Of a DNA stretch of 64,000 bases, positions 2,236 through 57,516 are shown one piece after another (position 1 is the stretch's first letter; each line of letters begins with the position of its first letter). The DNA lies in contig VRMN01000001.1 in NCBI GenBank assembly GCA_008690995.1, forward strand, positions 2,170,001 to 2,234,000, given 5' to 3'. A program made the translations under genes and the position numbers. The DNA comes from Porphyridium purpureum. Taxonomy: Eukaryota. The notes beneath the pieces are model-generated. The model was not told where the DNA came from and did not search any database. It saw only the letters and a list, made by a program, of their open reading frames with translations.

Positions 2236-2409
2236 CTTCCCCCGCCTTCTTGCTCGACACACCTTCACGCACGCAACCGCCCGCCGTCGCCCTGCACCAC
2301 ACCGCGCACGCCTCGACGCCACCAGATTCGGCTTCTCTATTAAAAAGCGCGACTTTTTATAGCACGGCGTTCCCTTCCAAATCTGCCGTGGAATAGTCGA
2401 AACGAAAGT

Positions 2410-2706
2410 CGTGGTAATATCGGTCACGCTGAACCGCGGACGGCCGCTTGACACTGTATAAATGGGTCGTTAGGGACCACCACGCGACGATCCGTAGCTT
2501 AGAAGCAAGAGGCTCTCTTCGTGGGTGAGGTAAAAGTTCGTCGCGTTTCGTAGCGATTGGGAGCTAGCGGTGAGTCATCCCCGCGCCTTGTAGAGTCCGC
2601 CACGTTGTGTGGCCCACGTGTTGTTTGCATTGTTGTTTGCGTCCCACGCACCCTTCGAGCGTAGCGGCGGTCACTCACGGTCGATCCCTTGGAGCACCTC
2701 TCCAAG
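2410..2706 (+). repeat. Element A 5' LTR (CGTGG...CCAAG)
   Basis: Direct repeat of 19285-19581; TATA-like GTATAAAT at about 2456. Confidence 0.93.
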
Positions 2707-2721
2707 GGTTATGAGCCCAGC
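2707..2721 (+). promoter_or_regulatory. Element A primer-binding site, half-tRNAiMet type
   Basis: GGTTATGAGCCCAGC is complementary to an initiator tRNA-Met anticodon arm, as in Drosophila copia and Ty5. Confidence 0.85.
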
Positions 2722-3023
2722 GGCTTATGCTGTCTGAGGAGATACTGATCTTTGCGTTCGTGTGCGTTGTCGTGGGTTTGTGTCGGTTGATTCATTTGAG
2801 CTTTTGGGATTTGGATCGTGTAGAACGTCAAGAGACAATTTTGGCGTGGTGTTGCTTGAGCGAGGAACGCTCGTATCGCCGCTAACATTGTGGTTCTCTT
2901 GAACACGCTTCAACTTACCACTTGGAGCCCGTAATCTTTTGAATCAAGAAGGACAGCTCCGATTTCTGGACCATCCGAATAGTGTTGCGCCTAAAGGCGA
3001 GCATTGTGGACGGACGTTTCGTC

Positions 3024-5419
3024 ATGGACGACCGGGAACAGGAGCAGTCGCGCTTGCGTGCCGCAATGGCAGCGCGTCAACTGCAACAGCAACAACAAGG
3101 AGGTGGAGCAGGGCCGGCAGGGCAGCCAGCGACCCCTCCTTTTGATTTTGAGATCCTGATGGCGAGGATTAGGGCCGAGTTATCGGTGGATCTGCAAGTC
3201 GCGCAGCGGCGCATTGAAGGTCTAGAGCAGGAACTGGCGCAAGAGAGGACCGCGCGCACAGCGGTCGCGTCAGCGGGATATCAGCAGGGGAAAACGCTGG
3301 TGCCGGCTCGTATGATCACGTACGATGGGGAGCGAGACCTTGTAAAGATCATTACATGGGTTTCGGCTGCGCGCGATCGAGTAGTTGCACCGTACGTGGA
3401 AGAGATCGAGGCGCTCGGCGGGCACTGGGATGCGCGTGCGGAGAAGCGGGTCGTTAGGAATCTCTCTTCGTATTTGTGTGGAAACGCGGCACTCTGGTGG
3501 ATCCGGATGAAAGACCAGCCGGAGCTCGTTGAGGATTTCCTGAAGGCTTTGGAAGCGCGTTTTGCTCCGGTAAACCCGGGCGCTCGGGCGCGTGACGAGC
3601 TCTTTGAGTTGGAGCAACGTGGCTCAAGCGTAGAACATTATACCAATATGTTCATGTCCTTGTGTTTACGTATTGAAGATGCCAATGAGTCAGAATTGTA
3701 CGATAAGTACAAGCGTGGGCTAGACAAAGATGTGCGAATCCAGACGGAGTTAAAAGGTCCGACGAGATTAGACGACTTTATACGCGTTGCGCTCGAAGTT
3801 GATGCAATCATGCATCCTGATCGAGCAGCGCCGATCCGAAACGGTCGACCATCGGCGTCGAACGATGGGCCCACCCCGATGGAATTGGGCACAGTCGAAA
3901 AGCTAAGCAGAAAGAGCGGGAGATCGAGCAATGAAAACAGGCGACGGCGCCATCGTGGCCGTGGAGACTTGAAGAAGGACCAATGCGCCAAATGCAAGAA
4001 GTTAGGACACTGGAAGAAAGATTGTCCAGAAGTAGCCGCCGGGGCGGCGGAGCTCGAGTTGCTTGCGATGAGCAACGGCGTGAAGGTCGAGAAGTTGGTG
4101 CGTCGTGATATGCTGGTAAATGGACACAATGTGAGTGTCATATTTGACACAGGAGCCACCAATACTTACGCATCTTTGGCCTTCTGTGAGAGAATCGGAG
4201 CGGCGGTGAATAAGACTGCGGTGTTTGGGGGCGTCCGCTTGGCGGACGGGAATATGAGCAAGTCAATCGGGACGGCGCGTTTGACGTTAAAGTTGCCCGG
4301 GGCGCGAGACACTAGGCTGTCGGCGGTCGTGCATGTGGCTCGACACGACCTGATTGTCGGTTTGGATTGGCTGCGCGCGCAGAAGGCGCGATTTTCGATC
4401 GGTCAGATGGAACTCCTGAGTACGGACAGTGAGATGCTGGGCGATGCTCACACGATGAACGCGCGCAATGACGCGGCGAGGTCGCGAATGTCGCAGCATG
4501 ATCTTCTTCATATGCCGGCGAGAGCAAATTGTAGCATCTGCTCGATGGGAAAGATATCGAGAGCCCGTGCGATGCGGAAAAGTGGCGACGATACCGAGCG
4601 GGTCAGCTTTAATAATGCAGTCTCCGTAGATCTGGTCGACCCGACAGTGATCGGCGTCGACGGTACGCGTTGGTTGATGACACACCGAGACATAGGCACG
4701 GGCTGGGTGTCGGTAGCGAGCTTGCCAGATAAGCGCGCAGAGACAGTGGCTGTTGCGTTTCGAGAGATGCAACGGGGACGCGGATGGCCCATGATTGTCA
4801 AGTCCGACGGAGGCGGTGAATTCGAGGGCGTGTTTGAGGACATATTGCGCGATCAGCTGGTTGTGCACGAGCGCGGGATCGCGAGGCGGTCAAACACACA
4901 CGCAGCGCACGAGCGGCTACATCGCGACTTGAACGCCACGCTCCGGGTACTTCTCGTACAATCCGGTCTGCCGACAGAGTGGTTTGCATACGCCGCAAAA
5001 TTCTGGGCCCAAGTAAGGAATCTCGTCTGGCGCGGTCGTAATAGCTCTGGCACAGCTTACGAAAAACGGTATGGGAACGAGTGGAAACTTGAAATACCGG
5101 CCTTTGGACAAGGTGTGGTCGTGTACGCTGAAGCGTCTGGAAAGTGCGAGCCCAAGGGCATACCTGCGATAGTCGTTGGGGTCCGTGTGCCGACAAGCGA
5201 AGTTATCAAACAGCGACTAAACTGCTTGATTATACCGGTAGCCGACTTACGACCTGCAGCTGCCCGATGGGTGCAGGAATGGAAATCCCTGCCAGACAAA
5301 TTTCCGGTATTGAAGTATGGGCTGAGGCCGGCAGAAGAGGGGCACGTTCCAGGGCAAGACGTTTCCGAACGAGTGAGCTCTGATAGTGAGCCCTTGCTGG
5401 TGAGCTCTGATGATGAAGG
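3024..5419 (+). CDS. Element A polyprotein, 5' part: Gag (CCHC knuckle), aspartic protease, integrase
   Basis: PTPMELG, CAKCKKLGHWKKDC, IFDTGAT...DLIVGLDWL, HDLLHMPARANCSIC, and DDE residues in VDLVD / SDGGGEF / HERLH. Interrupted by element B. Confidence 0.9.
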
Positions 5420-5711
5420 TGTCGCGAGCGACCTGATGCAGGTCTCAGTACAGCGAGTACGCAGAGGTACAGTCCCTAAGTGTACTGAAAGTACAGCTGT
5501 GGGTGTACCGTGTGGTACAGCTGAGTTATGTTGAGGGCCGCGGGATTGGGTTATTCCGAGGGCTGAACCCGCCGGGCAAGCCGTTGCGGCGCCGGAAGGC
5601 GGGTATAAAACAGAGCGAGCGGCAGCCGAACGAAGAAAAAAGGCTAGGAAGAAGAGAGGAGGTAGAGGAGGAGAGAAGAAGAAGTAAAGAAAAGAAGCTC
5701 CGTTTGTGACA
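5420..5711 (+). repeat. Element B 5' LTR
   Basis: TGTCGC...GTGACA; TATAAAA at about 5604; GTAC cluster in U3. Confidence 0.95.
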
Positions 5712-5768
5712 TAATTTGCAAATTGGTCGTGTGGGAGCGAGGAAGTGTGGGGTTGGGAGTGGGATAGG

Positions 5769-7067
5769 ATGGCGCGTGGGCGTGGGGCAGGAGTTGGAGA
5801 GGCAGGTGGGCCTCGCGAGGCAGCAGTTGTGGCAGGACTTGGGGAGCCACGCAGCGGATCCGCGATCATCGAAGCAGGGGCCGCTCGTGCCGGGGGCCCA
5901 GCGCCAGAAGACGGGCCTGTCGTGGAGCACCAGGGTGAAGCTGTCGACAATGAGCAGGGGACGCCAGGTCACCTGGAAGCCGCAGCCGACGCAGAGTCCG
6001 TTGTCCCGGTTGGAGACCTAGCTGCACCGGGCGGAGCCGAAGTGATGGCCCTTCGCGCTCGCGTTGCTGAACTGGAGGCCCAGGCGCACAGCCGCAACTC
6101 GGCGCAGACCTCGGGCCGTACCATGGATCGGTCGTTCTGGGAGGAGCAGTTGAAGCTCGCAGCAACCTTTCGCGAGGCGGTCCGCAGTGCTCAAGTTCTT
6201 ATCAAGGCCCCAGGTGACGCTCATTTCTTCGCGTCGCGGACCTGCTGGGAGTCGCACGCGGACACACTTGGCCTCGCAAGGGACAATGTCGCGGAGCACA
6301 TCAGCGCTTGCTTTGGTGGGCCCGCGGTGTCAAGGTACCAAGCCGTGATCAAAGATGTCGATGCGGCAGGGCCCGGCGCAGCGAACCGTGTGTGGAAGGC
6401 ACTGGAGTCCATGTTTTTCAATGTCGAGCACCGCCAGGCTTTGAAAGCCGAGCTCCGCCGCATGAAGTTCCAACCGGGGAAAGCCAGCTTGAGTGTCTTT
6501 CTGAACGACCTGGAGACCAAGGCTGACGGGCTCAAGATGGACGACGAGGACAAGAAGGACGTGTTGATCGAAGCCATGGACTCCGCGTTCTTGAAGAACA
6601 CGGTCCGCATGATCGGCGTGAGCGTCTCGTTCACCAAGCTGCGCTCAGCTCTGGTGGACCACGTCGGTGAAGATGGTTTGAAGGGTCTACCGAGTCGCCC
6701 GCTTCCTCCGTTTGGCCAGCAACGCCCGCTTGGCCGCGAGAGAGTGGGCCGCATAGGCGAGGTCCCGGGCACGACGATCCAGAAGCGCGGTCGTGACTAC
6801 GGCCTGTACGCAGAGGATGTGTACCAGGTCGAGAGCTTCGGGCCACAGGCCAAGCGCCAAGCCCTTCCGACTGCTTTGCCCGGACAGCCGCAGTGCTGGC
6901 AGTGCGGCGAACTTGGACACTTGAAGAGGGATTGCCGCAATGGATGGCCACGGGCCGATGGGGGAGTGCATCGCCCCGCGGGCCAAGGTGGAGCACCACG
7001 TGCGCCGTATCCGGACGGTGGCTTGAGCCACGGACCAAAAAACGGGCAGTGGGGCAGCAAGCAGTAG
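5769..7067 (+). CDS. Element B Gag
   Basis: ATG at 5769; CWQCGELGHLKRDC zinc knuckle; overlaps pol in the -1 frame. Confidence 0.85.
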   Translation: MARGRGAGVGEAGGPREAAVVAGLGEPRSGSAIIEAGAARAGGPAPEDGPVVEHQGEAVDNEQGTPGHLEAAADAESVVPVGDLAAPGGAEVMALRARVAELEAQAHSRNSAQTSGRTMDRSFWEEQLKLAATFREAVRSAQVLIKAPGDAHFFASRTCWESHADTLGLARDNVAEHISACFGGPAVSRYQAVIKDVDAAGPGAANRVWKALESMFFNVEHRQALKAELRRMKFQPGKASLSVFLNDLETKADGLKMDDEDKKDVLIEAMDSAFLKNTVRMIGVSVSFTKLRSALVDHVGEDGLKGLPSRPLPPFGQQRPLGRERVGRIGEVPGTTIQKRGRDYGLYAEDVYQVESFGPQAKRQALPTALPGQPQCWQCGELGHLKRDCRNGWPRADGGVHRPAGQGGAPRAPYPDGGLSHGPKNGQWGSKQ

Positions 7068-7074
7068 CTGCCCC
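7037..7074 (+). promoter_or_regulatory. -1 ribosomal frameshift signal of element B
   Basis: A AAA AAC in the gag frame, 7-nt spacer, then an 8-bp stem GGGGCAGC/GCTGCCCC. Confidence 0.75.
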
Positions 7075-8677
7075 CTGCATGGAATGGTGGGAGCCGGGCG
7101 ATGCCTCAGGTGAGGCAGAGTTGCAAGGCGCGGCGTACGCCAAGGAACAAGACGGCGACGCGGAGCTGGCCGTGCGTGCGGACAACAGTCCGACGTTGCG
7201 GGTGAAGCTCACCGCATGTGGCCAGGCAGTGGTCGCACTGGCAGTTCTGGACACGGGCGCAAACTCAACATGGGTGAGCCCGAGCGTGGCTGACCGGCTC
7301 GGCTTGAAAACGCAGCCGTCAAGTTGGGGAGCGCGAGGGCCGGACGGCGCCTCCTTGGGCAGAGTCAGCGTTGGGTTTCTGGATCTGCATCTCGGGTCTT
7401 TCGTTTTTCCGTGCGAGACGGTCCGAGTGGCGGAACACCTCAAGACAGATCTCTTAATCGGCTGGGACTTCCAGGTTCGAGAAGTCGCGGCCGTGCTGCC
7501 AGGTCAAGCTGTGTTCTTCAAGCGTGGAGGTTCTCTACCGTTCGAGCAAGTGAGTGGTCTGCCGGGCCCAGAACACATCGGTCATCTTGAAGAACCGGGC
7601 GAGATTGATCGTCGAATCGCCCAGCTGGAGCAGAAGCACGCGGCCGAGAAAGAGGAAGCCCTGCGCAACGCCGCGGCCATCGAGCTTGGGCATCTCGAGC
7701 CCGAGCAGCGCAAACGAGTCGGCGACGTCCTAGCTGAGGCGTGGGTGCTGTTCAGGCCGTCCATGGGATTAACGGACCTGGTGGAACACACCATCACTGT
7801 CGAACCGGGCCAGCGCCCTCTGGTGGCCAAAGTGCGCAGGCGCTCAGAGGCCGAGAACGAGGCTGAGCGCAGCCTGGTCGAAGCCCTTGTCGCTAAGGGA
7901 GTGCTGCAGCCGAGCACGTCGGAGTGTGCAGCAGCCAACGTACTGATCCGGAAACCAGATGGATCGTATCGGATGACTACCGACTTTCGCCCGCTCAATG
8001 CAATCACAATCAAGGACAGGTACCCAATCCCAGACGTTGGGGAGATGCTCGACTGGCTTTCGAGGCGCCGATGGAAGAGCGCTCTCGATCTCAAGGACGG
8101 GTTTTTCCAGGTGCCCCTTGCGCCAGAAAGCATGCATTTGACTGCCATGATCACACGTGAGGGGCTATTTGAATACACGCGTCTGCCGCAGGGCTGCTGC
8201 AATAGCCCGCCAACGTTTCAGCGACTCAACAACCGGATTTTGGGCCCTATGCGCCATGCACACGCGCAGATCTACATTGACGATCTGACAGTGGGACATG
8301 AGACCTTCGAGGAACATGTGGAAGGACTTCGTCAGATCTTGCGAAGGTTCGCGGCGTCGGGACTTACACTGTCGGCCCGCAAGTGCAAGATTGCTCTGGC
8401 AGAAGTACAGTTTCTGGGCCATCGCATTGGCCCGCAAGGTTTGCGGCCTGGGGTAGATAAGACGCGGGCAATCCTGGAGTGGCCAGAGCCAGAAGAAGCG
8501 AAGGACCTGCAGCGGTTCCTGGGACTGGTCGGCTGGTTTCGTAACTTCATACCGAACTTCGAGGAGCGTGCCCTCCCGCTGAGGCGAGCGCTGACTGGGC
8601 TCGGATTGACGGACAAGAAAGGTGGCTTCCACCGGAAGACGGCCGGTGGCGCAGAGTGGGCGAGCAGATTCGGGGAC
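7043..8677 (+). CDS. Element B Pol, 5' part (protease, RT); interrupted by element C
   Basis: VLDTGAN, LDLKDGFFQV, LPQGCCNSP, YIDD. Confidence 0.9.
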
Positions 8678-8975
8678 TGTTATCCGTTCGACCCCAGTCA
8701 CCTAGAACGGTTCGGTTAATCCGAAACCGGTAAGCCGTTAAACCGGTAGACCGTTTAACCGTTTCTAGAAGCTTCTAGAGGTTCCAGAACCTTCTAGACG
8801 CGCGCAGAAATGCCAATGATTTGCATTGTCATTTCTCTTGGCGCCTTGCTGTCCCTGGCGGAAGTAAGGGTATAAAAAGGCGACGCGCCTGCCCGGACTA
8901 GCCGGTCAGGTCTTGCTCGGAGACAGAAGAGGTAAGAAAGAAGACGCAGAGAATAAAGGCACAGCATTGGTAACA
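8678..8975 (+). repeat. Element C 5' LTR
   Basis: TGTTA...TAACA; TATAAAA at 8871; AATAAA at about 8952. Confidence 0.95.
8763..8799 (+). promoter_or_regulatory. Tandem heat-shock-element-like array in C LTR U3
   Basis: TTCtaGAAgcTTCtaGAg followed by TTCcaGAAccTTCtaGAc, about 72 bp upstream of the TATA box. Confidence 0.65.
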
Positions 8976-9542
8976 TTTGGTATCATCGCTGGTTACCTGG
9001 GGTTGCTCTAAGGTTCTCTTTGAGTTTCTCTGGGGTTGCCTGGGTGGGAGAGTCTGCGGGTAAGGGGGTTCGAGTAAGTCGATCCGGAGGGTGCGACGGG
9101 TGGAAGCGGGTCTCAGTCTTGGCTGTACGATAGGCCTAGGCCTTGACGGCGGACTCGCTCTCTGCCTTAGCACGTATTAGTAGGCAAGAGCCGTAACGGT
9201 CAGCCTTCACTAGGATTCATCCTAGTGTCGCACGACCACCTTTGCGAAGGTAGGCGCCGAACACCTCCATACAAGATCGCATCTATAATCCCCGCCCCAG
9301 TGCAAAGGCCCGGGCCGCTCCCCATCCAGCGCAACAGAGGAGGATTGCTGTGTGCTTTGTTGTGTGTGCGTGAGAGGGTTGCTGTGCGTGTGTGTGAGTG
9401 AGAGGACCGCTTCGTGTGTCGATTTGTGTTCGTGAGGGCGACCGAGCCCGTTCGTGGTGCGCGCAGCCGTTCGAGAGTGTGAGCAGCGGAGACTCGCTGT
9501 TTGTGTCGTTGTCGTCGTTTAGTGTGCTTGTTTCCAGAAAGC

Positions 9543-10349
9543 ATGGAGATTGATTCGGAGACGCTGGGACCACGTGGCCCGAAGGAGGCCCGTCTGATGA
9601 GGTTCGACGGGAAGCGTGACCTTCTCGTTGTGAAGACGTGGTTGTTCCAGGCGAGAAAGAAGATCTTGGGCCGGCTGTTGGAGAGCATCCACCCGGACGA
9701 TTTGGAGAAACGTCTGCTTGCGGAGAGGCGTGCTGTGGACCTGGCATCAGACTACTTCGAGGGAGAGGCGCTTCATTGGTGGGTTCTAAACTGCGAACGC
9801 TACCCGCATGAGATCCCCACGACGTGGAATGATTTTGCTGCCCTCGTGAGTGCTCGGTTCACGCCGCAGGATTCGATCAGGCGTGCAAGGGACAAGTTGA
9901 CGCGTCTTTCGCAGAAAGGCCCGGCCCATGCGTATGTGGCGGCTTTTCAGGACGCGGCACTTGTGATTCCGGACTTGTCGGACGCAGAAATGATGGACCG
10001 CTTTGTGAGGGGTCTGAAGCCCGAGGTCCGCTTGGAAGTGTACAAGCGAGGAGTGAGTACGTTCGCGGAGGCTGCGCAGGTGGCGGTGGTCGTGGACGAC
10101 GCCATTCATGCGACCCGCGGCGTGCGTGATTCAAGTGTGAGGGCGCCATTTTTCGGTCGTGCAGCGCAGGAAGGACCTGTCCCGATGGAGCTGGGACATG
10201 TGCAGGGTCAGAGGCGTGTTCGTACCGAGCTCAAGTGCTGGAATTGTGGAAGGCCGGGACACATCGCCAGGACGTGTCCCGAGGCAAGGAAGACTATCCA
10301 GCAGCTGGAGGGAGACTCGCTGGAGTCAAAAAACGAGGAGCTCGAGTAG
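9543..10349 (+). CDS. Element C Gag
   Basis: Retrotrans_gag-like FDG..W, ALHWW, RFVRGL, PVPMELG and CWNCGRPGHIARTC. Confidence 0.9.
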   Translation: MEIDSETLGPRGPKEARLMRFDGKRDLLVVKTWLFQARKKILGRLLESIHPDDLEKRLLAERRAVDLASDYFEGEALHWWVLNCERYPHEIPTTWNDFAALVSARFTPQDSIRRARDKLTRLSQKGPAHAYVAAFQDAALVIPDLSDAEMMDRFVRGLKPEVRLEVYKRGVSTFAEAAQVAVVVDDAIHATRGVRDSSVRAPFFGRAAQEGPVPMELGHVQGQRRVRTELKCWNCGRPGHIARTCPEARKTIQQLEGDSLESKNEELE

Positions 10350-13300
10350 AAAGGTTCCTCGGACAGTCAGAGGGAAAGGAGGCTCGCAGGCGTTACGAGA
10401 CCTCTAGGGGCGGCAATGAAGACCGCTGTGGTGGCCTTGGTAAGCCAAGGTCTGGCTGTCCGACACCTTGTGGGCGAAACTCGAGCGCAAATCAGCCCGT
10501 GATCAAGGAACTTGGAGGGATGGGAGCTGCCATGCTTCTTCGAGTTCGAGGAAAAGTGCACAAGTCCGACGGAGAGGCCGCGTTTTTGATTGACAGTGGC
10601 GCGACGGACAACTTCATGAGCGTGGACTTTGTGCTGAAATCCGACGGCCTGAAGCAGAAGGCGTCGTGGAAGAGAGATCATGTGACCCTAGCGGATGGGT
10701 CTGTATTGGAAACAGCCGGAGAAGTTTCCAATGTCAAGTTTGAACTGAGCGATGGGTACTCAGGGGCCGCTAACTTTGCCATTTGCCGGATTGCGGGACA
10801 AGACGCAATCTTGGGCATGGAGTGGCTGAAGCGGGAGAACCCAGTGATTGATTGGCAGTCTGGCATGTTGGCCTACGGAGAGAAGAAGGCCTGGAGCATG
10901 ACGCAGATGCTGGTGCCGCGGAAAGAGCTCCGTCGGCTGTTGAAGAGTCAGGAGGTAGAAGAGTGCTACCTCGGCGTGCTGAAAGGAAGGGAGGAGCCCT
11001 GTTCAGTGGAGCGCAAAGGAGATGACTCTGTGAAGAAGATGCTCAAAGATTTCGAAAGTCTGTTCGAGGAGCCGCGAGGGCTGCCTGAGAGCCGAACAGT
11101 GGAGCATGTGATTAGGCTGAAAGATGAGAAGCCTGTGAGAGTGGGCAGGGTCTACCGACTGAGCCCTGCGGAGTTGAAAGTCCTCCGAGAGACTTTGGAT
11201 GACTTGCTGGATAAGGGATTCGTCCAGCCGAGTCAGAGCCCCTTTGGAGCACCCGTGCTGTTCGTGAAGAAGAAAGACGGCAGCATGAGGATGTGCGTCG
11301 ATTATCGGGCGTTGAACGACGCAACTGTGAAGGACCGGTATCCGTTGCCGAACATGGATGAGTTGCTGGATCGACTGGGCGCAGCTCACTGTTTCTCAAA
11401 GTTGGATTTGGCATCGGGATACCACCAGTTGCGTGTTCGGAGAGAGGACGTGCCGAAGACCGCGTTCCAGACCAGGTACGGACAGTTCGAGTTCCGTGTG
11501 ATGCCGTTTGGTCTTTGCAACGCGCCGGCAACTTTTCAGAGGGCCATGAACGAGCTGTTTGCAGATCTGCTGGACAAGACCGTCATTGTCTACTTGGACG
11601 ATATTTTGGTCTTTACCAAGGATAGGCAGTCGCACGGCGAGGTCCTGAAGGAAGTGTTGTCGCGCTTGCAAAAGGCAGGGTATCGGTTGAAGCGCAAGAA
11701 GTGCAGCTTCTTCGTTTCTGAAGTCGAATACCTGGGGAACATTGTCGGCAACGGTTGCGTGAAGATGGATCCACGGAAGGTGGAAGCTTTGAGAGATTGG
11801 CCAGTGCCAAAGACGGTGACGGAGTTGAGATCCTTTTTGGGAATGACAAACTGGTTTCGCAGGTTTGTCAAAGGATACTCTACCGTCGTGGCGCCGCTGA
11901 CTTCGCTGTTGCAGAACGCAAAGTCGAAGAAGCAGCTGATCGAACTGGGAGATGAAGGCAAATCGGCCTTCAAGAAGATTGTCGGGATGTTGACGGAAGC
12001 GCCGGTGTTGGCCTTGCCAGACCCTGAAAAGCCATTTGAGGTGTACACGGACCGCTCTGAAGTCGCGGTGGGGGGATGGCTGGCACAGGAAGGCAGACCG
12101 GTCGCGTTTACGTCGAGGAAGCTGCTGGACCGAGAGACCAGGTACAGCAGCTATGAAGGTGAGCTCATGGCCGTCATTCACTGTCTGCGAGAGTTTCGAC
12201 CTTATCTGTACGGGGCAAAGTTTGTGCTTCACACAGATCATGAGGCGTTGAAACATCTGATGACGCAGAAGGAGCTGAATGGCCGGCAAGCACGGTGGTT
12301 GGACTTTTTGGCCGAGTTTGATATCACAATCGACTATGTGAAGGGAAAGTCGAACGTGGTGGCCGATGCTTTGTCGAGAAAGCCAGAGTTGCATGCGCTA
12401 GAGTACCAAGTTCGGTGTGATGAATTTGGTGCGGGGTTCCAGGCATTCGTGGGTTCGTACTCGAGTGACCCAGACTTTGGTGCTTTGATGGGGGATTTAC
12501 CGACCCACCAAGGCTTTCGAACCGAAGCTGGGCTCTTGTACTTGAGGAATCGCGTTTGCGTGCCGAGGAAGTTCAGAGAGCGTGTCATGCAGCTCCACCA
12601 CGATATCCCGACAGCAGGACACCGTGGAGCCGACACGACGTATGCATCTTTGATCACTCGCTTCTACTGGCCAAAGATGAAGCGAGACGTGAGCCGTTTT
12701 GTGAAGACTTGTCACGCGTGCCAAGTGACAAAGTCTGAGAATCGGTCGTTTGGAAAGCTGAAGCCCTTGTCGATCCCAGAAGGACCTTGGGTCGACATTT
12801 CGATGGACTTTGTGACGGAGCTGCCTCGGAGCGAAGGCAGCTGTGATGCAATCATGACTGTGGTGGATCGCTATTCGAAGATGGCGCTGTTTATCCCGAC
12901 GCGCAAGGACTTGACAGCAAAACGTTGTGCTGACTTGTTCGTGAAGCACGTCGTGAGCCGTTTCGGATACCCCAAGTCAATTGTATCGGACCGAGATCCG
13001 CTGTTTACGTCCACGTTTTGGCAGCAGTTGAGCAAGCGGGTGGGCATGAAGTTGGCTATGTCTGCCGCCAACCACCCGCAGACTGATGGCCAAACTGAGC
13101 GAGTGAACCGGGTGATTCGGGAAATGCTCAAGTTAATGGCGACGAATAGTGGCTGGGTGCGAGACTTGCCGTTGTACGAGTTTGCGTACAACTCTGCACC
13201 AAGCAGTGCCACTGGATTCGCGCCGTTCAAAGTGGTATATGGAAGGGATCCTTGGTTTCCACCGAGCGAAAGGTGGAGGCCTGCGCGCGACGGACAGACA

Positions 13301-13726
13301 AAGGACATGGCGGAGCACTGGTTTCGCCTGTGCAAAGTCCATGAAGAAGTCCGCGACAATTTGATCGAAGCCCAGGGGAGAATGCAGAAGTTCTTCGATC
13401 GACGCAAGGATGCCCGGGAGTTTCAAGTTGGTGATCAAGTGTTGATCACGGCGCCGCAATTGCGGCCGAACAAGAGTGATTTGGCGGCACCAAAGTTTCT
13501 TGGTCCGGTGCCTGTCATTGAGAAGGTAAGCTCGCATGCTTACCGAGTGATTTTGCCCGAGGGTGTGGCTTGTCATGATGTTTTTCCGATCCAACATCTG
13601 AAGCCATACTATGGACGCGAAGACTACATGGCAGGGGAAAATGATGAAGAAGTACCCGACGAAATGCCGGCGTCCGATTCTGAGCCAGACTTGTTGAAAA
13701 TTATCGAAGAGTCTGACTCTGAATGA
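10328..13726 (+). CDS. Element C Pol (PR-RT-RH-INT), reached by -1 frameshift at A AAA AAC (10328-10334)
   Basis: LIDSGAT, LDLASGYHQ, MPFGLCNAP, YLDD, TDHEAL, HHCC, SMDFV, SDRD, GQTER, GPY/F-like motif. The ORF is intact. Confidence 0.93.
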   Translation, partial: KKRGARVERFLGQSEGKEARRRYETSRGGNEDRCGGLGKPRSGCPTPCGRNSSANQPVIKELGGMGAAMLLRVRGKVHKSDGEAAFLIDSGATDNFMSVDFVLKSDGLKQKASWKRDHVTLADGSVLETAGEVSNVKFELSDGYSGAANFAICRIAGQDAILGMEWLKRENPVIDWQSGMLAYGEKKAWSMTQMLVPRKELRRLLKSQEVEECYLGVLKGREEPCSVERKGDDSVKKMLKDFESLFEEPRGLPESRTVEHVIRLKDEKPVRVGRVYRLSPAELKVLRETLDDLLDKGFVQPSQSPFGAPVLFVKKKDGSMRMCVDYRALNDATVKDRYPLPNMDELLDRLGAAHCFSKLDLASGYHQLRVRREDVPKTAFQTRYGQFEFRVMPFGLCNAPATFQRAMNELFADLLDKTVIVYLDDILVFTKDRQSHGEVLKEVLSRLQKAGYRLKRKKCSFFVSEVEYLGNIVGNGCVKMDPRKVEALRDWPVPKTVTELRSFLGMTNWFRRFVKGYSTVVAPLTSLLQNAKSKKQLIELGDEGKSAFKKIVGMLTEAPVLALPDPEKPFEVYTDRSEVAVGGWLAQEGRPVAFTSRKLLDRETRYSSYEGELMAVIHCLREFRPYLYGAKFVLHTDHEALKHLMTQKELNGRQARWLDFLAEFDITIDYVKGKSNVVADALSRKPELHALEYQVRCDEFGAGFQAFVGSYSSDPDFGALMGDLPTHQGFRTEAGLLYLRNRVCVPRKFRERVMQLHHDIPTAGHRGADTTYASLITRFYWPKMKRDVSRFVKTCHACQVTKSENRSFGKLKPLSIPEGPWVDISMDFVTELPRSEGSCDAIMTVVDRYSKMALFIPTRKDLTAKRCADLFVKHVVSRFGYPKSIVSDRDPLFTSTFWQQLSKRVGMKLAMSAANHPQTDGQTERVNRVIREMLKLMATNSGWVRDLPLYEFAYNSAPSSATGFAPFKVVYGRDPWFPPSERWRPARDGQTKDMAEHWFRLCKVHEEVRDNLIEAQGRMQKFFDRRKDAREFQVGDQVLITAPQLRPNKSDLAAPKFLGPVPVIEKVSSHAYRVILPEGVACHDVFPIQHLKPYYGREDYMAGENDEEVPDEMPASDSEPDLLKIIEESDSE

Positions 13727-13845
13727 CTTGGGAATTGTGAGAAGTTTGCTAGGCAGAGGTTTTCTCCCGGAGCGCGGGTTCCTCGAGCCAAGAATGCAAC
13801 TTAGTTTGAAGTCTCGCCGAGACGTCGAGCCAAGAGGGGGGGAGA

Positions 13846-14143
13846 TGTTATCCGTTCGACCCCAGTCACCTAGAACGGTTCGGTTAATCCGAAACCGGTA
13901 AGCCGTTAAACCGGTAGACCGTTTAACCGTTTCTAGAAGCTTCTAGAGGTTCCAGAACCTTCTAGACGCGCGCAGAAATGCCAAAGGTTTGCATTGTCAT
14001 TTCTCTTGGCGCCTTGCTGTCCTTGGCGGAAGTAAGGGTATAAAAAGGCGACGCGCCTGCCCGGACTAGCCGGTCAGGTCTTGCTCGGAGACAGAAGAGG
14101 TAAGAAAGAAGACGCAGAGAATAAAGGCACAGCATTGGTAACA
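13846..14143 (+). repeat. Element C 3' LTR
   Basis: Direct repeat of 8678-8975, preceded by the PPT. Confidence 0.95.
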
Positions 14144-14148
14144 GGGAC

Positions 14149-16116: not shown

Positions 16117-16163
16117 CGCTGGGTGGCTATCGGCCGTCGCTGCTCTCAAAAAAAATGTTCGAA

Positions 16164-16316
16164 TAAAGATGGAGTGTCCGTGGCTGGACGGTAAAGAAGG
16201 AGCTGGGTCCGTTGCTGGACTATAAAGAAGGAGCTGTGTCCGTTGCTGGACATTAAAGAAGGAGCTGTGTCCATGGCTGGACGGTAAAGAAGGAGCCGTG
16301 CCCGCAGCAAGACGGT
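16164..16316 (+). repeat. About 5 copies of a ~31-bp tandem repeat in the element B 3' UTR
   Basis: Unit TAAAGAAGGAGCTGTGTCCGTTGCTGGACNN, head-to-tail and degenerate. Confidence 0.85.
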
Positions 16317-16824
16317 AGAACGAATGATAAAGAACAAAATGAAGTACAGTCTGTGTACAGTGAAGTACAGTAATACTGTACCTGAGTCCATATTTGGGGG
16401 TGTATATACTCTAAATTTCGGCAGTTTGGCAAACGAGAATTGAAGAGGATCTTAGGCACTCCCTGATTAGAGAAAACTGCCCCTGTGAAATGCTGGGGAT
16501 CCGTGGCTAGGGTAATTCCCCGGGGTGACATTGGGCAGAGCCGTAACAGCGCACCTTTCCTTTAAGGTTAGCGGGGGAGGGGGATGGCAGCCTGTACGGG
16601 GTCTTGTCAGTGGGCGTCACTTGTGAGCGGCACCGGCCACCTTATTTTTTTGGCCCTGTTGCTGGCACTGTACCCTGTCAGCTTACACTGTACTTCGTCC
16701 GCTCGATCTCAGCTCATTGTGCTTGAACCTGTTGAGCGGCACGGGAACGGCTGCTATGCATGCGGCGCGTGGGCTTAGAACACGCTATCGCAATGGTCGC
16801 TGTGGATAAGCGGGAAGTGTGGGA

Positions 16825-17116
16825 TGTCGCGAGCGACCTGATGCAGGTCTCAGTACAGCGAGTACGCAGAGGTACAGTCCCTAAGTGTACTGAAAGTACA
16901 GCTGTGGGTGTACCGTGTGGTACAGCTGAGTTATGTTGAGGGCCGCGGGATTGGGTTATTCCGAGGGCTGAACCCGCCGGGCAAGCCGTTGCGGCGCCGG
17001 AAGGCGGGTATAAAACAGAGCGAGCGGCAGCCGAACGAAGAAAAAAGGCTAGGAAGAAGAGAGGAGGTAGAGGAGGAGAGAAGAAGAAGTAAAGAAAAGA
17101 AGCTCCGTTTGTGACA
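16825..17116 (+). repeat. Element B 3' LTR
   Basis: Direct repeat of 5420-5711. Confidence 0.95.
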
Positions 17117-17120
17117 AAGG

Positions 17121-19242: not shown

Positions 19243-19284
19243 TCATGATGGTCTCACGTCCGCCGGTTGGCGCGCGAGGAGGCG

Positions 19285-19581
19285 CGTGGTAATATCGGTC
19301 ACGCTGAACCGCGGACGGCCGCTTGACACTGTATAAATGGGTCGTTAGGGACCACCACGCGACGATCCGTAGCTTAGAAGCAAGAGGCTCTCTTCGTGGG
19401 TGAGGTAAAAGTTCGTCGCGTTTCGTAGCGATTGGGAGCTAGCGGTGAGTCATCCCCGCGCCTTGTAGAGTCCGCCACGTTGTGTGGCCCACGTGTTGTT
19501 TGCATTGTTGTTTGCGTCCCACGCACCCTTCGAGCGTAGCGGCGGTCACTCACGGTCGATCCCTTGGAGCACCTCTCCAAG
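19285..19581 (+). repeat. Element A 3' LTR
   Basis: Direct repeat of 2410-2706. Confidence 0.93.
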
Positions 19582-21943: not shown

Positions 21944-22063
21944 CTTGGAAAGCCCCGCTCGGTCGAAACAACGAACAAAAGTGCGCGCGCCTGTACGGCT
22001 CTGAAAAGTTGCTGCAAGTGTAAAAAGTCAGGACCGCTAGCTTTACATTATCCTAATTTTAGT

Positions 22064-51399: not shown

Positions 51400-51709
51400 G
51401 TTGACCGCAGCTGGGCATCCACCGCGACCGCGCAAATCGTGCTCCCTCCTGTTCCCCCTCCTGTTCCCCTCCCGCGTTCCCCAACCCCTGTTGCTGCGCC
51501 GCTTCCCCTCCGATCTGTCTTGCACTACACACCCCCTCCCGCCCCTCCCCTCACGCCCACCCCCGCGCACTCCCCTCCACACCACTCCAGTCCAGCCACG
51601 CTTTACCCCCCTCCCCTCGACTTTTTCCCCTTCTCCACTATCGACTGCGAACGACTCGGTGCTTGTACGAACATGTTCGACGCGCGTGCCTATTGAAATG
51701 AGCTGAAAC

Positions 51710-52011
51710 CGTGGAAAGTTGCCCGTCCCACTCGTCGATGGGCGTGCGGAAGGGCGAGTGCGAACGTACCGGGACGTCGTGACGGGGATTCAGCGGGTGT
51801 AATGCGATGTGACTCGACTAGCGTCCCGCCGGATGCCGATGTGACGTGACTCGATGTGGTCAGATTGCATCAACAAGGACCCGGCGGGCGTCTATATAGT
51901 GGGTGCGGTCGCGCAGAGATGGCAGACGGATAAGCCTAGAAGAAAAGAGAGAAGGTAAGGGAAGGGGAATAGTAAAAGGGTTCTTCGTTGATCGTTAACA
52001 GAAAACCCACG
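51710..52011 (+). repeat. Element D 5' LTR (CGTGG...CCACG)
   Basis: Perfect 5-bp terminal inverted repeat; TATATA at about 51893. Confidence 0.95.
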
Positions 52012-52071
52012 TGGTATCATCGCCGGTTCGGCGGGTGAGGAGCGGTAGTCTCTGGTGCGGGGCCTGTCGGG

Positions 52072-52812
52072 ATGGACGAGGAGACGGGGCCAGTTGTGAG
52101 GCCGGCGCGGCTCAGCCAGTTCGCGGGGCAGCGGAACCAGCGAGTGGTGATGAACTGGTTGTTCGAAGTGGAGACGAAGGTTCTGCCGTTCGCCAGCTCT
52201 GAGCGCGAAGGAGTCAACGTAGCCATGAGCTACTTGACGGATACTGCATTGCAGTGGTTGCGTGGCCTGCCGGTCCGTCCAGAGAATTGGGCCGGGTTTC
52301 GAACGGTGTTTATGGAACAGTTCTTGCCGGCGGACTACAAGCGTCGCGCGCGAGATGCGCTGCATGGATGGCGCCAGACGAGGGGCGTAGCGGTGTACGC
52401 GGCCGAGTTCAGGGACCTGGTCCTAGCGTGTGAGGACGTGGGTGCCGCGGAGGCGTTGGACAAGTTCACGCGTGGACTTAAGCCCGCCATAGCGTTCGAA
52501 GTTATGAAGGAGAATCCAAGTAGCCTCGATGAGGCCTGCCGAGTTGCCCTTTGCGCGGAGGACGCATTCGTGGCGGCGCGTCGCGGTTCGCCATCATCCC
52601 AGGGTCTTGGGATCCACCATCGCTCAGGCCCGACGCGCGCTTTCGACGTGCCGTATGGAGAGAGCTCGGCACCAATGGAAATCGGGGCGCAGGCTATGGA
52701 GGTAACCTGTTACAACTGCGAGGAACGCGGGCACTTTGCGCGAGACTGCCCCAAGCCGCACCGCGCGCGAGCGCAGGCGCAGCCGGGAAAAGGCGCCCCG
52801 CGCCGAGACTAG
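52072..52812 (+). CDS. Element D Gag (Ty3/Gypsy type)
   Basis: FAG..WLFE, SYLTDTALQW, RARDAL, KFTRGL, APMEIG, CYNCEERGHFARDC. Confidence 0.9.
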   Translation: MDEETGPVVRPARLSQFAGQRNQRVVMNWLFEVETKVLPFASSEREGVNVAMSYLTDTALQWLRGLPVRPENWAGFRTVFMEQFLPADYKRRARDALHGWRQTRGVAVYAAEFRDLVLACEDVGAAEALDKFTRGLKPAIAFEVMKENPSSLDEACRVALCAEDAFVAARRGSPSSQGLGIHHRSGPTRAFDVPYGESSAPMEIGAQAMEVTCYNCEERGHFARDCPKPHRARAQAQPGKGAPRRD

Positions 52813-55800
52813 GGCAGGTGTCGGCGCGGGAGCCGTCAGAACTTCTGACGTTGCACGTTCGCTTCTGCGGGAAACGTGCGATGGCAATCGTAGACTGTGG
52901 CGCCACACATGTCTTTGTGGATAAGGCATGGGTGCGCCATTCAGGGTTATTATCATTTTGCGAAGCGACACCGGGACTTCAGGCCGTCCTTGCCGACGGG
53001 CGCAAGACTAATGTTGTCGGGAGCCTTCTCGGTCATTTGGAGCTGAACGGCATCGGGTCACGTCGCTGCCGTGCGATTGTATGTCCGGCACTGATGACCG
53101 ACCTCGTCATCGGTATGGAGTTCCTGACGCGTACTGGGATGGTCATTGATTACGAGGACGGGAGCATTTTCATGCGTAAGCGGGAAGATATGAACTTGAA
53201 AAGGGACAAGGAGCAGAACGGGAGCGCAGGGCGCACGAGCGGAGGAACGGCTGGGCCGGGCAGAGAGCAGAACGAGAGCGCAGGGCGCACGAGCGGAGGA
53301 ACGGCTGGGCCGGGCAGAGAGCAGAACGGGAGCGCAGGGCGCACGAGCGGACGAACGGCTGGGCCGGGCAGAGAGCAGAACGGGAGCGCAGGGCACGTGG
53401 AAGCAAGCTCTGTCAATCCGCAGCCGCGAAATCAAGGACGGAGCGCGGGGCGCTCGAGCGTACATGTGGACGGGCCATGCGTGAACCGAGACACAAGCGC
53501 GGGGCGCGTGCATGAAAAGAACGTCGGAAAGTCATCAGGGCTGAGCGATGAAGAGAGCGCGGGGAGCTCCAACGCATGCTCGACAGGAGCGAACGGTTAC
53601 GAGAACGGGAATATGAGCCCGGAGCGCGTAGATTGCGAAACAGATAGGCCGAACATGGGGGCGAATGTCGAGGTCCATTCGAACCAAGCATGCAAAGGCA
53701 CCCCGTTGGCGAAGTCGGCTGAGTGCCGCGAAACGGAGGTACGGACGCGAGGAAGGGACCAAGTGATGGGCAAAACGAAGGCGAGGAGCAACACGGACCC
53801 TGCGCAAGACTCGCTAGTCAGGAGTAAAATCGGGTCGCGGCATGGCGGCAGTGCGTTGAAGGAAACCGCATACCCTTCCGGAGACTGTAGCCTGATCCCA
53901 GAACCTGATTCGCCGGGGGAGGCACAAACCGGCGACATAGCGTCAAGTTCAAGCGACGATGGAGCGCCAAATGCGATACGAGGTATTCGACGCGCAATGA
54001 CATGGGTCGATCGTCTCGCCCTTGGCACCACAGTTTCAAATGTGCCCGACGGACACGCGCTCCTGCACATGCCTGCTCGCACGTCGTGCGAGGTTTGTAC
54101 AAGGGCGAAGCTGAAAATGCGGCCGTCTTACCGAATTGATGTCGACGCGCACGCGCGAGCACCTGGGGTCGCTGCACGCTTTGACGAAGAAATAGGGGTG
54201 GACCTGGTCGACGCCGGCGCCAAGGTCCGTTCGCGGGAAGGATATCGATACATCCTGACACATGTCGACGAGCACACGGGGTGGATAGAAGTCGCGGGAG
54301 TCGTCGATAAGACTGCCCTGGCCTGCCGCGAGGCGCTTGTCGAGTGCCAAGCTGGGAGAGATTGGCCGAAACGGATGCGCACAGATTCGGGCAGCGAGTT
54401 TAGGGGCGCGTTCGCGCGCGTTCTGCGCGAGAGGAACGTTGAACATACCCTCTGCATCCCTCATAGACCGAACGGACACGCGCGACTGGAAAGACTGCAC
54501 CACACGTTGAATGCCGTCATTCGTTGCCTCTTATGGCAATCGGGTTTGCACGTCGTCTGGTTTTTCAGAGCAGCCAAATTCTTCGCGTTCTGGTACAATC
54601 GGGTGCACCTGGGTAGGGACGGACTAACTCCCTTTGAGCGCAGATACGGACAGGGATGGGTCGAGAGCGGCAAGCCATGGCTGATGGCTCCATTCGGATC
54701 GCGGGTGGTCTATAAAGTGGACGACGTAGCCAACAAGTTCGCTCCTACCACGCGCGAGGGAGTGGTCGTCGGGGCTCGGGACCACCCCGCCGCCCTCGAA
54801 GTTCTCGAGACAGGGTCTGGAGCGACGACGTGGACAAGAGATTTCAGAGTATTCAAAGACTTCACCATGCGCGTGCCGGGCGCAGAACCGCTCGCAGAAA
54901 TGGAAAAGGTGATCGCGTACGATCCGGACGGGGATTTGGCAGTCGCACAGCGCGACAACGTCGCGTCGGAAGAGACGGGAATCAAAGCGAGGGTTGAAGC
55001 AATCACGGAACGCCTGAAGGCCATCGACGAGCGGGAAAAGCAGCTAAGCCAGGAGGTCGCGGCGCGGCGGGCGGCTAAGGAGGGCAAAGAAATCAGGCGT
55101 ACAAAGAAGAACGCCCGTCGCTCGGCCCGAATAGCGGCGCGCTTTCCTTCCGTGACCATAAATGTTACCAGGGTAATGAGCAGACGAGAAGCCACCACGG
55201 ATGGAAGGGCAGCTGAGGCCATTGAGAATGAGCTCGGGCAAATGCGGCGCTTCGGCGTGTGGGATCCGGAACCGGTCACTCTGAACTCCATTACCGAGGG
55301 ACTTATTGTAAGGGCGCACATGGTGGTAGCCGAAAAGCACACGGAGCGTCCTGTTGAGGAGCGCAAGATCAAGGCAAGGCTCGTGGCCGGGGGGGATCGC
55401 ATTACGGACATGACGGGGGTCCCAGTGTCTCTTACCGTTCCCTACGAGGCGCCGGCATCTTTAGCTGCGCTAAGGATCGTGCTGGCGTGGGCGCAGATGA
55501 ACGAATTAGAAGTGGGCTTTGTTGACATCACCAGCGCCTACCTGCAGGCCGAGTGCAGCGGGGGACCGGTGTATGTAATCCTTCCCAGCGAGGCAGGCGG
55601 GAAGACGGGCACCGCCCATCATCTCCGCAAGGCAATGTACGGATTACCGAGAGCGGGAGCGGACTTCGCGCGCGAAGCTCGTAGTCGCTTGTTGCGTCTC
55701 GGATGGGTGGAGGTCACAGCAGGAGTGTATATCCGTAGAAGCCTCGAGGGGAACGCGGCAGGACTCGTCTTGGTAATGTACGTTGACGACGTGGTCTTAG

Positions 55801-56900
55801 CGGGGCGGAAAGACGAGGCACGGAATGCCATGAGTGAGTTATATCAAGAATTCGTGATCGACGAGCAACCGCAGTGGCTCGGCGAGAGCCCGGTCCTTCA
55901 CCTTGGCATGCGGATTTCCAGAACGAACGGAAGGGTAAAGATTGATGGTACGGACTACGCAAAGACCATTATAGATGAGTACGAGCGCGACTCGACTGTG
56001 AGGACGAGGGGCACGCGCGATGCGGCAACCCCCATGGTATTTCCAGAGGCGGCGCTCTACGACGAAGCGGAAGTCAGTACGACTTGCCGGCAACACGTCG
56101 GACGCCTAATGTGGCTCGCACGCACGGTAAAGCCCGAAATAGCATACTCGGTCGCATATGTCTCGCGCTTTGTGGACAAGTGGAGCAAGGCAGCATCGGC
56201 GATTCTCGACCGAATCGTGCGGTACGTGCACGGGAGCCAGGATAGTGTCTTGGAATACGGCAGCGCGGGGCGCCTGGGAGATCAGGTACGAATAGTCGCC
56301 TTTTCAGATAGCGACCATGCAGGCTGTCCCGCGACGCGGCGGTCAACTTCCGGCGGTTGCGTATACTTCTCAAACGGAGAAGAGAACTACTTGGTAGATT
56401 GGTTTTCGAAAGCACAACGGGCCTCGGTATTATCCACCGCGGAGGCGGAACTCACCGCCCTTGGCAGGATCATGCGAACTACGATTCCTAACGCCGAAGT
56501 TGTAATCCGAGGGCTCGTTGGAACGCGCGTACCGCTCGCTGTGTGTTGCGACAGCGAAGCAGCGGTGAAGGCCGTTCGACGAGGATACTCCGCCAAGATG
56601 GCAAGTCTCGGGAAGACACACGGCGTCACTGTAGCCACCCTCTCGGACGCTTTTGATGGAGAAGACTCGAACCTCGTGTCTGTCCCCGGAATATCGAATT
56701 GCGCAGACATCTTCACGAAGCCGATGGAACGAGTGGCATTTACACGTGCTATTGCCAACCTTAGGAAGGGCGCTTCCAACGATCGAGAGCGAGACGTGCA
56801 CGGGGCGCGTGGAAAGTTGCCCGTCCCACTCGTCGATGGGCGTGCGGAAGGGCGAGTGCGAACGTACCGGGACGTCGTGACGGGGATTCAGCGGGTGTAA
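52785..56900 (+). CDS. Element D Pol (PR-INT-RT-RH, Copia order), reached by -1 frameshift at G GGA AAA
   Basis: IVDCGAT..DLVIGMEFL; HALLHMPARTSCEVC; VDLVD / TDSGSEF / LERLH; KARLVAGG, VDITSAYL, AMYGLPRAG, YVDD, SDSDHAG, ADIFTK. The stop lies inside the 3' LTR. Confidence 0.92.
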   Translation, partial: GKRRPAPRLGQVSAREPSELLTLHVRFCGKRAMAIVDCGATHVFVDKAWVRHSGLLSFCEATPGLQAVLADGRKTNVVGSLLGHLELNGIGSRRCRAIVCPALMTDLVIGMEFLTRTGMVIDYEDGSIFMRKREDMNLKRDKEQNGSAGRTSGGTAGPGREQNESAGRTSGGTAGPGREQNGSAGRTSGRTAGPGREQNGSAGHVEASSVNPQPRNQGRSAGRSSVHVDGPCVNRDTSAGRVHEKNVGKSSGLSDEESAGSSNACSTGANGYENGNMSPERVDCETDRPNMGANVEVHSNQACKGTPLAKSAECRETEVRTRGRDQVMGKTKARSNTDPAQDSLVRSKIGSRHGGSALKETAYPSGDCSLIPEPDSPGEAQTGDIASSSSDDGAPNAIRGIRRAMTWVDRLALGTTVSNVPDGHALLHMPARTSCEVCTRAKLKMRPSYRIDVDAHARAPGVAARFDEEIGVDLVDAGAKVRSREGYRYILTHVDEHTGWIEVAGVVDKTALACREALVECQAGRDWPKRMRTDSGSEFRGAFARVLRERNVEHTLCIPHRPNGHARLERLHHTLNAVIRCLLWQSGLHVVWFFRAAKFFAFWYNRVHLGRDGLTPFERRYGQGWVESGKPWLMAPFGSRVVYKVDDVANKFAPTTREGVVVGARDHPAALEVLETGSGATTWTRDFRVFKDFTMRVPGAEPLAEMEKVIAYDPDGDLAVAQRDNVASEETGIKARVEAITERLKAIDEREKQLSQEVAARRAAKEGKEIRRTKKNARRSARIAARFPSVTINVTRVMSRREATTDGRAAEAIENELGQMRRFGVWDPEPVTLNSITEGLIVRAHMVVAEKHTERPVEERKIKARLVAGGDRITDMTGVPVSLTVPYEAPASLAALRIVLAWAQMNELEVGFVDITSAYLQAECSGGPVYVILPSEAGGKTGTAHHLRKAMYGLPRAGADFAREARSRLLRLGWVEVTAGVYIRRSLEGNAAGLVLVMYVDDVVLAGRKDEARNAMSELYQEFVIDEQPQWLGESPVLHLGMRISRTNGRVKIDGTDYAKTIIDEYERDSTVRTRGTRDAATPMVFPEAALYDEAEVSTTCRQHVGRLMWLARTVKPEIAYSVAYVSRFVDKWSKAASAILDRIVRYVHGSQDSVLEYGSAGRLGDQVRIVAFSDSDHAGCPATRRSTSGGCVYFSNGEENYLVDWFSKAQRASVLSTAEAELTALGRIMRTTIPNAEVVIRGLVGTRVPLAVCCDSEAAVKAVRRGYSAKMASLGKTHGVTVATLSDAFDGEDSNLVSVPGISNCADIFTKPMERVAFTRAIANLRKGASNDRERDVHGARGKLPVPLVDGRAEGRVRTYRDVVTGIQRV
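53211..53396 (+). repeat. 54-bp in-frame tandem repeat (3 copies plus a partial one) between PR and INT of D
   Basis: EQNGSAGRTSGGTAGPGR units start at 53211, 53265 and 53319, with a partial unit at 53373. Confidence 0.92.
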
Positions 56901-57109
56901 TGCGATGTGACTCGACTAGCGTCCCGCCGGATGCCGATGTGACGTGACTCGATGTGGTCAGATTGCATCAACAAGGACCCGGCGGGCGTCTATATAGTGG
57001 GTGCGGTCGCGCAGAGATGGCAGACGGATAAGCCTAGAAGAAAAGAGAGAAGGTAAGGGAAGGGGAATAGTAAAAGGGTTCTTCGTTGATCGTTAACAGA
57101 AAACCCACG
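56808..57109 (+). repeat. Element D 3' LTR
   Basis: Direct repeat of 51710-52011. Confidence 0.95.
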
Positions 57110-57516
57110 GAAACGATCGGAAAATCGTGGGCGCGCGACGGGGAAAACCGCCCACCTGCTGCGCGGTTGCGATTCGAAGATGTAATGGAATAATCGGGGG
57201 GCCGCACTCGCGCGGGTCGGAACGTCGAGTGTCTGAGCTTATGGGCAGCCGCAAGAAGAAACACAGCCTAACCAGGCCCAAAAGGGACAAGAACGAAAAG
57301 GAGACGGTACTGCTGGAGTACAGTGAGGTCACGGGAAGACAACTCAAACGCGTCAAGGGTGACGAGGGTGCTGTGCACCGCCGCGTGCAGGGCGCGACGA
57401 CCGGGCGTGGCAGTCGTGCATGATCGGGTCCGTTCCGGTCTCGTGCACGTGCGTGGCGGAATGCTTTTTCTTCAACTTCTTTTTACACGGCTTTACTGCG
57501 AGCTGGAGTCAGACAC

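Follow-up and report, generated by a model that had tools for sequence, protein, structure and literature searches.

We identified two long terminal repeat (LTR) retrotransposons with unusual termini, designated A and D, in a 64,000-nucleotide stretch of the Porphyridium purpureum genome (assembly GCA_008690995.1, contig VRMN01000001.1, positions 2,170,001 to 2,234,000; hereafter the window, to which all coordinates refer, on the + strand unless stated otherwise). Both elements appear to have inserted recently and to end in CGTGG...CCA(C/A)G, such that the strand joined to the target DNA ends in G. The reading we narrowly favor, at a probability of about 0.5, is that their integrase takes a blunt DNA copy ending in G and joins it unclipped, as Ty1 does with its CA end. 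The feature is real; the mechanism is testable and unproven. Four LTR elements, A to D, were found in the window. Element A (2410-19581) is split by gypsy B (5420-17116), which in turn is split by gypsy C (8678-14143), and element D (51710-57109) is uninterrupted and flanked by host genes. The LTR pairs are identical in A, B and D and 99% alike in C.

The termini were examined by enumerating all pairs of boundaries between 4 nt outside and 6 nt inside each LTR element. By this approach, D was read as GAAAC/CGTGG...CCACG/GAAAC (slashes mark boundaries), with a longest duplication of 5 bp and only two 4-bp sub-readings in competition. The identical 302-bp LTRs (CGTGG...CCACG; 5' LTR 51710-52011, 3' LTR 56808-57109) are flanked by target-site duplications of GAAAC at 51705-51709 and 57110-57114. 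Paired LTRs, a primer-binding site (PBS) and a polypurine tract (PPT), as well as gag-pol and a target-site duplication, as of an LTR retrotransposon, were all found.

The D region was present in 18 public sequencing runs, four of which were compared with D as assembled contigs and not as reads (likeness was set at 85%, some rows fuse two contigs, and strains may share copies). An empty site was found in run X8, in which position 51704 is joined to 57110 with a single GAAAC and without CG; therefore, the CG of D is element and not target. The same run held a second D-type insertion, with a left junction of ...GTCATCAC/CGTGG, a right junction of CCACG/ATCACACC, and ATCAC outside CG...CG. From the matching ATCAC we infer that both junctions belong to one insertion (the chance of a random 5-mer match is ~0.0011 per pair in this window). 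One contig of run X11 corresponded exactly to 56808-57109, the 302-bp LTR from CG to CG, which indicates that the X11 assembly graph branches at the CG ends. Among the 17 loose-end rows listed of 23, 13 rows (18 contigs) lay at LTR ends; CG was kept in all 13, with no break at TG or CA, and the remaining four were a sister LTR variant and adapter. Where a loose-end row merged two contigs, it could not be taken for one flank. Taken together, these results confirmed the CG...CG boundaries of D. The sequence-only reading of this DNA had placed the GAAAC duplication outside CG...CG, and this placement was borne out by the enumeration, the empty site, the second insertion and the exact-LTR contig. 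The checks it had named also came out in its favor for D, the one element to which they were applied: no copy had a duplication adjoining TG...CA, and the empty site was without CG. The D pol was 100% identical to a P. purpureum protein whose cluster has 13 members on several scaffolds. The identical LTRs and the copies at differing sites in different runs indicate that G-ended copies integrated recently.

Two further observations were made on the D contigs. A sister LTR variant in runs X1, X8 and X11 diverges within the LTR (51896-52012, 56994) and has the same CCACG end. A joint of 3' LTR to PBS in run X9 was attributed to collapse of the LTR in an assembly of low depth, and not to a circle.

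Element A has identical 297-bp LTRs (CGTGG...CCAAG; 5' LTR 2410-2706, 3' LTR 19285-19581), flanked in the 5-bp reading by AAAGT at 2405-2409 and 19582-19586. The flanks share an overlapping 7-bp GAAAGTC, and one 5-bp (CGTGG...CCAAG), two 6-bp and one 7-bp readings were found to fit, leaving the ends ambiguous by one base on either side. A duplication adjoining TG...CA was obtained in none of the 10 listed readings, and the 5-bp reading was the closest match to D. The earlier claim of AAAGT/CGTGG...CCAAG/AAAGT thus fits and its exclusion of TG...CA stands, while the boundary is more ambiguous than was then stated. No further DNA likeness of A to D was detected by blastn, and the shared 5-bp end is therefore regarded as a conserved end site. 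The 3' ends of the transferred strands of A and D read CCACG, CCACG, CCACG and CCAAG, with CCA at positions -5 to -3 in all four, a variable next base outward, and a penultimate C in three of four. Instead of the TG...CA termini of Ty1/copia elements, D has CG...CG and A has CG...AG.

The internal junctions proposed from the sequence were also found as described: CACG/TGGTATC (D) and CAAG/GGTTATG (A) at the PBS, and GGCG/CGTGG at the PPT in both. The PBS of D, TGGTATCATCGC (52012-52023), directly abuts the LTR and has the same 12 nt as that of gypsy C, probably matching the 3' end of the initiator methionine tRNA (tRNA-iMet). The PBS of A, GGTTATGAGCCCAG (2707-2720), likewise abuts the LTR, and is putatively of the half-tRNA type that matches the anticodon part of tRNA-iMet, by its motif resemblance to copia and Ty5. 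The last G of A could presumably also pair with a half-tRNA primer. No host tRNA gene was found in the 64-kb window. Two primer types would be in use by families of one clade, with a half-tRNA-type site in A and a site for the tRNA 3' end in D. In neither element is a dinucleotide present between the PBS and the integrated right end. The putative PPT regions end in GAGGAGGCG in A (19274-19284) and GGGGCG in D (56798-56807), and in both 2 nt separate the purine run from the LTR (GAGGAGG-CG/CG and GGGG-CG/CG). Gypsy C has a spacer of TT at the PBS and GA on the PPT side.

We next consider the coding regions, in which gypsy-type and copia-type modules were found side by side. By domain search, D has a Ty3/gypsy-type gag (52072-52812; Retrotrans_gag, Ty3_capsid, CCHC) and a gypsy-type aspartic protease (52854-53123), with an in-phase slippery heptamer, GGGAAAA, at 52785 that is predicted to cause a -1 frameshift, as its counterparts in gypsy B and C are. 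These are followed by an integrase (54054-54779) with a short HHCC region, a D-D-34-E triad and the loop R-P-N-G-H-A before the catalytic E, and downstream of it a copia-type reverse transcriptase (RT; RVT_2) with RNase H (55335-56765). Within the D pol, the protease spans 108-197, rve 564-646 and RVT_2 935-1151. The order is the same in A, where a single-frame gag-protease-integrase (3024-5419) is broken by gypsy B and the copia-type RT and RNase H lie at 17121-19242; the slippery site is present in D only, A being one frame up to the break. Both elements thus have the Ty1/copia order of protease, integrase, RT and RNase H, with RVT_2 and not RVT_1, and RT-RNase H and integrase that fall in a divergent clade of the trees described below. 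The Ty3/gypsy order of protease, RT, RNase H and integrase, with gypsy-type RT and integrase, was not supported by domain order, Pfam or the approximately unbiased (AU) test. Likewise, the copia-type gag (PF14223) and protease (PF22936) were replaced by Retrotrans_gag, Ty3_capsid and a gypsy-type protease.

The A and D gags were 32% identical to that of gypsy C (E ~1e-29), and comparison with gags from their nearest relatives in pol gave no similar match. Sequence searches recovered about a dozen P. purpureum families whose pol is of the A/D type, and a Ty3-type gag was present in all six of the scanned families with a full N terminus (P0028, P0029, P0032, P0034, P0035 and P0282). By contrast, the metagenome and transcriptome pol relatives carry another gag and a copia-like protease. 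A search for the gag among longer proteins found none in 2602 candidates, and a PDB search with the gag returned zinc knuckles only. Based on the gag match to gypsy C and the trees of RT-RNase H and integrase, we regard A and D as real hybrids, in which a gypsy gag-protease sits on a divergent copia pol; the domains, gag match and trees are all in accord with the hybrid nature suggested at the outset. We found no description of a gypsy-gag/copia-pol lineage of this type in the open-access literature (Repbase-type records and subscription papers were outside its scope). An element of the red alga Porphyra yezoensis, PyRE10G, is said in the title of a paper to be copia-like with a gypsy-like integrase; by that description it differs from A and D, in which the integrase is of the copia clade and the gypsy part is the gag-protease.

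Several side observations concern these coding regions. P0285 and P0286 of P. purpureum represent another exchange of modules, as they combine a canonical copia gag, protease and integrase with A/D-clade RT-RNase H. P0279 is a copia element that has Retrotrans_gag, a copia protease and, between integrase and RT, a chromodomain. A weak Myb-like domain was found between integrase and RT at 17260-17410 of the window and in P0028, P0032, P0035, P0141 and P0169. The D pol contains a tandem repeat with a 54-bp unit between protease and integrase (53204-53394). The domain order is scrambled or permuted in metagenome relatives L003 and L001, which are probably rearranged or collapsed assemblies.

Trees were built with FastTree for RT-RNase H (83 of 213 domains, with redundant copies and lower-scoring rows left out) and from 74 of 175 domains for integrase, with a further integrase test on 20 chosen rows. 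In the RT-RNase H and integrase trees, A and D grouped with metagenome and transcriptome relatives, apart from canonical copia and gypsy. In the 20-row tree, A/D and their copia-type relatives formed a branch with support of 100/98, and a forced grouping of the A/D integrases with gypsy B and C was rejected (p-AU 0.035, a modest margin for 20 rows with long branches). The DDE triad was intact in all 13 Porphyridium-type integrases, and the spacing was D-34-E in 13/13 compared to D-35-E in 29 of 35 canonical copia rows. The residues R-x-N-x-H-A precede the E in all 13, whereas canonical copia has N and G in 35 and 34 of 35 rows, respectively. Same-clade relatives outside the Porphyridium-type group also showed D-34-E (20/24) and loss of the glycine (22/24), and H at E-4 was found in 13/13 Porphyridium-type integrases compared to 1/24 of the other clade members. 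Since D-34-E and glycine loss occur in relatives that lack a gypsy gag, part of this integrase oddity predates the gag swap. In alignment, the R-x-N-x-H-A stretch corresponds to the active-site loop of retroviral integrases; in the intasome of foamy virus, this loop is stacked on the terminal adenine (PMC6784120). As a lead only, the alignment suggests that the integrase may differ where contact with the DNA end would occur.

These observations can be arranged into a mechanism. At the U5 (right) end, by the known course of reverse transcription, removal of the tRNA would leave ...CACG-3', with nothing to clip or at most one primer-derived base; since the PBS abuts the right end, there is no dinucleotide for clipping there. 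That the PBS adjoins the right end in both families, despite their differing primer types, counts for blunt joining. At the U3 (left) end, plus-strand priming would start at the C of CGTGG and leave a blunt end as well, which is the weakest step. The integrase, with D-34-E and with N-x-H-A replacing Q-Q-N-G in the loop near the DNA end, would have changed together with the ends, and the ends would most likely have drifted along with the lineage of this pol, for instance through alteration of the outermost pair (TG becoming CG and CA becoming CG), and would not be a leftover gypsy spacer. Ty1 of Saccharomyces cerevisiae provides the closest parallel, sharing with A and D the order of pol domains, the 5-bp duplication and a primer site at the LTR end (PMC8487063, PMC2939329). 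Ty1 joins blunt ends without 3' processing (PMC8487063), in agreement with what the sequence-only reading had stated of it. As an unclipped PBS end is the normal state of Ty1, the absence of clipping is not in itself new; the new part is the G-ended joined strand. Ty1 itself ends in TG...CA, by contrast to the CG or AG of the A/D joined strand, and its gag and protease are unlike the gypsy-type ones of A and D.

A number of points weigh against this mechanism. The Ty1 integrase requires a terminal CA (PMC2939329, PMC8487063), and the analogy to Ty1 thus fails on sequence. Clipping may still occur at the left end, where GGCG/CGTGG, in A and D alike with 2 nt between purine run and LTR, fits either a primer ending in GGCG or a clipped 2-nt overhang. 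Processing was deduced from integrated copies only, and two families are available, with independent copies for D alone. The right end of A is AG, without the penultimate C, and the CCA kept in 4/4 ends fits a shifted CA equally. In the integrase of mouse mammary tumor virus, E-3 is A and E+3 is H, indicating that loop residues alone are not diagnostic; these two residues were accordingly dropped as a sole explanation. Among the relatives, none of 27 pattern matches in viral contigs was confirmed, and 166 matches in metagenome contigs gave five loci, of which not one had a duplication together with both LTR ends. From the protein tails of sister families, the PPT-LTR junction could not be usefully read through. 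Of the initial claim that the integrase joins unprocessed G-ended DNA, the G-ended joined strand and the lack of a dinucleotide on the PBS side stand, while the purine run leaves the left end open to clipping.

A somewhat unlikely alternative is that the ends are real and one of them is still processed. Priming directly after the purine run would leave 5'-CG-CGTGG at U3, from which CG would be clipped, and U5 would lose nothing or one primer-derived base. In A and D alike, exactly 2 nt, in each case CG, separate the end of the purine run from the LTR. Retrovirus-like end processing is reportedly on record for the Copia element Tnt1, to go by the title of a paper. One-ended processing has a precedent in foamy viruses (PMC6784120). 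However, the purine run of D is merely GGGG; its primer must therefore include pyrimidines, and the end of the run does not fix the cut. The PBS side is also without a spacer in either element.

We consider it unlikely that TG...CA, further in, represents the former attachment site and the outer two bases a gypsy-type spacer that was left unclipped once a gypsy gag and LTR met a non-clipping copia integrase. This would account for the CCA at -5 to -3 with a variable base outside, and it draws on a hybrid that is real, with a gag akin to that of gypsy C and, in D, a gypsy-like slippery site; confinement of the N-x-H-A loop to the Porphyridium-type group, judged by H at E-4, also fits. By contrast, the spacer of gypsy C is TT, with GA on the PPT side, neither of which is CG or AG, and the primer site of A is Ty5/copia-like by the motif presumed above. 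Both D-34-E and the loss of glycine arose before the gag swap. Because the U3 end would be passed on together with the PPT and pol, it is not explained by a gypsy spacer. Furthermore, CA would occur at that place in a 5-bp site with a chance of ~1/16, and inverted ends of 4-5 bp are common, as in B and C. A hybrid origin as the cause of the odd ends, as originally suggested, is therefore weak, given the TT spacer of C, the expected descent of U3 from the copia-type parent and the partly older integrase changes. The end sequences themselves fit two origins, a two-base outward shift that leaves CA inside, or a change of the outermost pair.

That the ends are canonical TG...CA, with CG/AG as target DNA, chance or assembly error, draws on the ambiguous boundary of A and is extremely improbable, being already refuted for D. 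The empty allele lacks CG, CG was kept in 13/13 listed LTR-end rows, a contig matches the 302-nt LTR exactly, the inner LTR ends carry these bases as well, and no listed reading of A places a duplication at TG...CA.

Odd termini have been described in other elements. The non-TGCA Copia elements of plants (Tos17 TG...GA, AtRE1 TA...TA, TARE1 TA...CA, lotus TGCT and others) are transposition-competent and resemble A and D in having odd termini and LTRs of ~300 bp; however, the plant non-canonical Copia ends reported in PMC9804982 and bioRxiv 137141 (TGCT, TGGA, TACA and others) start with T and end with A or T. Drosophila errantiviruses (AGT...AnT) share with A and D a lineage-wide change of the outermost base (PMC5408687), and the diatom elements CoDi3.2, CoDi4.2 and CoDi4.3 are without TG/CA ends (PMC2806351). 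By contrast to A and D, errantiviruses and CoDi belong to a different superfamily or clade and are T-ended, not G-ended. Ty5 and Drosophila copia use half-tRNA priming, the mechanism of which is documented (PMC5371799, PMC13017519), and A, by its motif, may do so too. The ends of Ty5, TGTTG...CAACA, are unlike those of A and D, and D differs further in probably using a tRNA 3' end. No CG-ended LTR element was found in the open-access literature, with the scope given above, and nothing on these elements was found in PMC12130899 and PMC2774666.

The nested gypsy elements served as controls. Gypsy B (5420-17116), which carries a chromodomain, has TG...CA ends and a 4-bp duplication, AAGG. Gypsy C (8678-14143) has TG...CA ends, a GGGAC duplication and, as expected from the initial reading, a 2-nt spacer before the PBS, identified as TT by boundary enumeration. 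After the LTR of gypsy B (5712-5724), the near-palindrome TAATTTGCAAATT was found instead of a tRNA-type TGG site, and the 3' non-coding part of B contains a tandem repeat with a 31-bp unit (16174-16328). The 9-mer GGGGCGCGTGG has four non-LTR matches within the window. Its occurrence at 22093 was rejected as part of an LTR, as it is unpaired as such and has a copy 942 nt away at 78% identity. A multi-zinc-knuckle gene (minus strand, 20294-22027) has upstream of it a 94-bp host duplication (22088-22181 and 23030-23123; 77% identity).

The terminal CA is regarded as a near-invariant signal for retroviral-type integrases, and in plant surveys the first T is fixed even among non-canonical ends. 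Annotation that demands TG...CA would miss elements of the A/D type, or would cut them short by two bases so that the duplication is lost. In this lineage, moreover, gag and protease were clearly exchanged between the gypsy and copia superfamilies. Tentatively, and as a possibility on the doubtful side of even, the Porphyridium lineage of about a dozen gypsy-gag/copia-pol families may have replaced the CA rule, with an N-x-H-A, D-34-E integrase that would join unprocessed G-ended DNA and the old CA persisting as a relic two bases inside. If so, this would be a natural, recently active integrase with rewired end specificity. A recently mobile CG...CG family is a natural test of how an integrase reads DNA ends, and for such a test there are two types of end, canonical elements of the same genome as controls, a loop change as candidate and a host that can be cultured and transformed.

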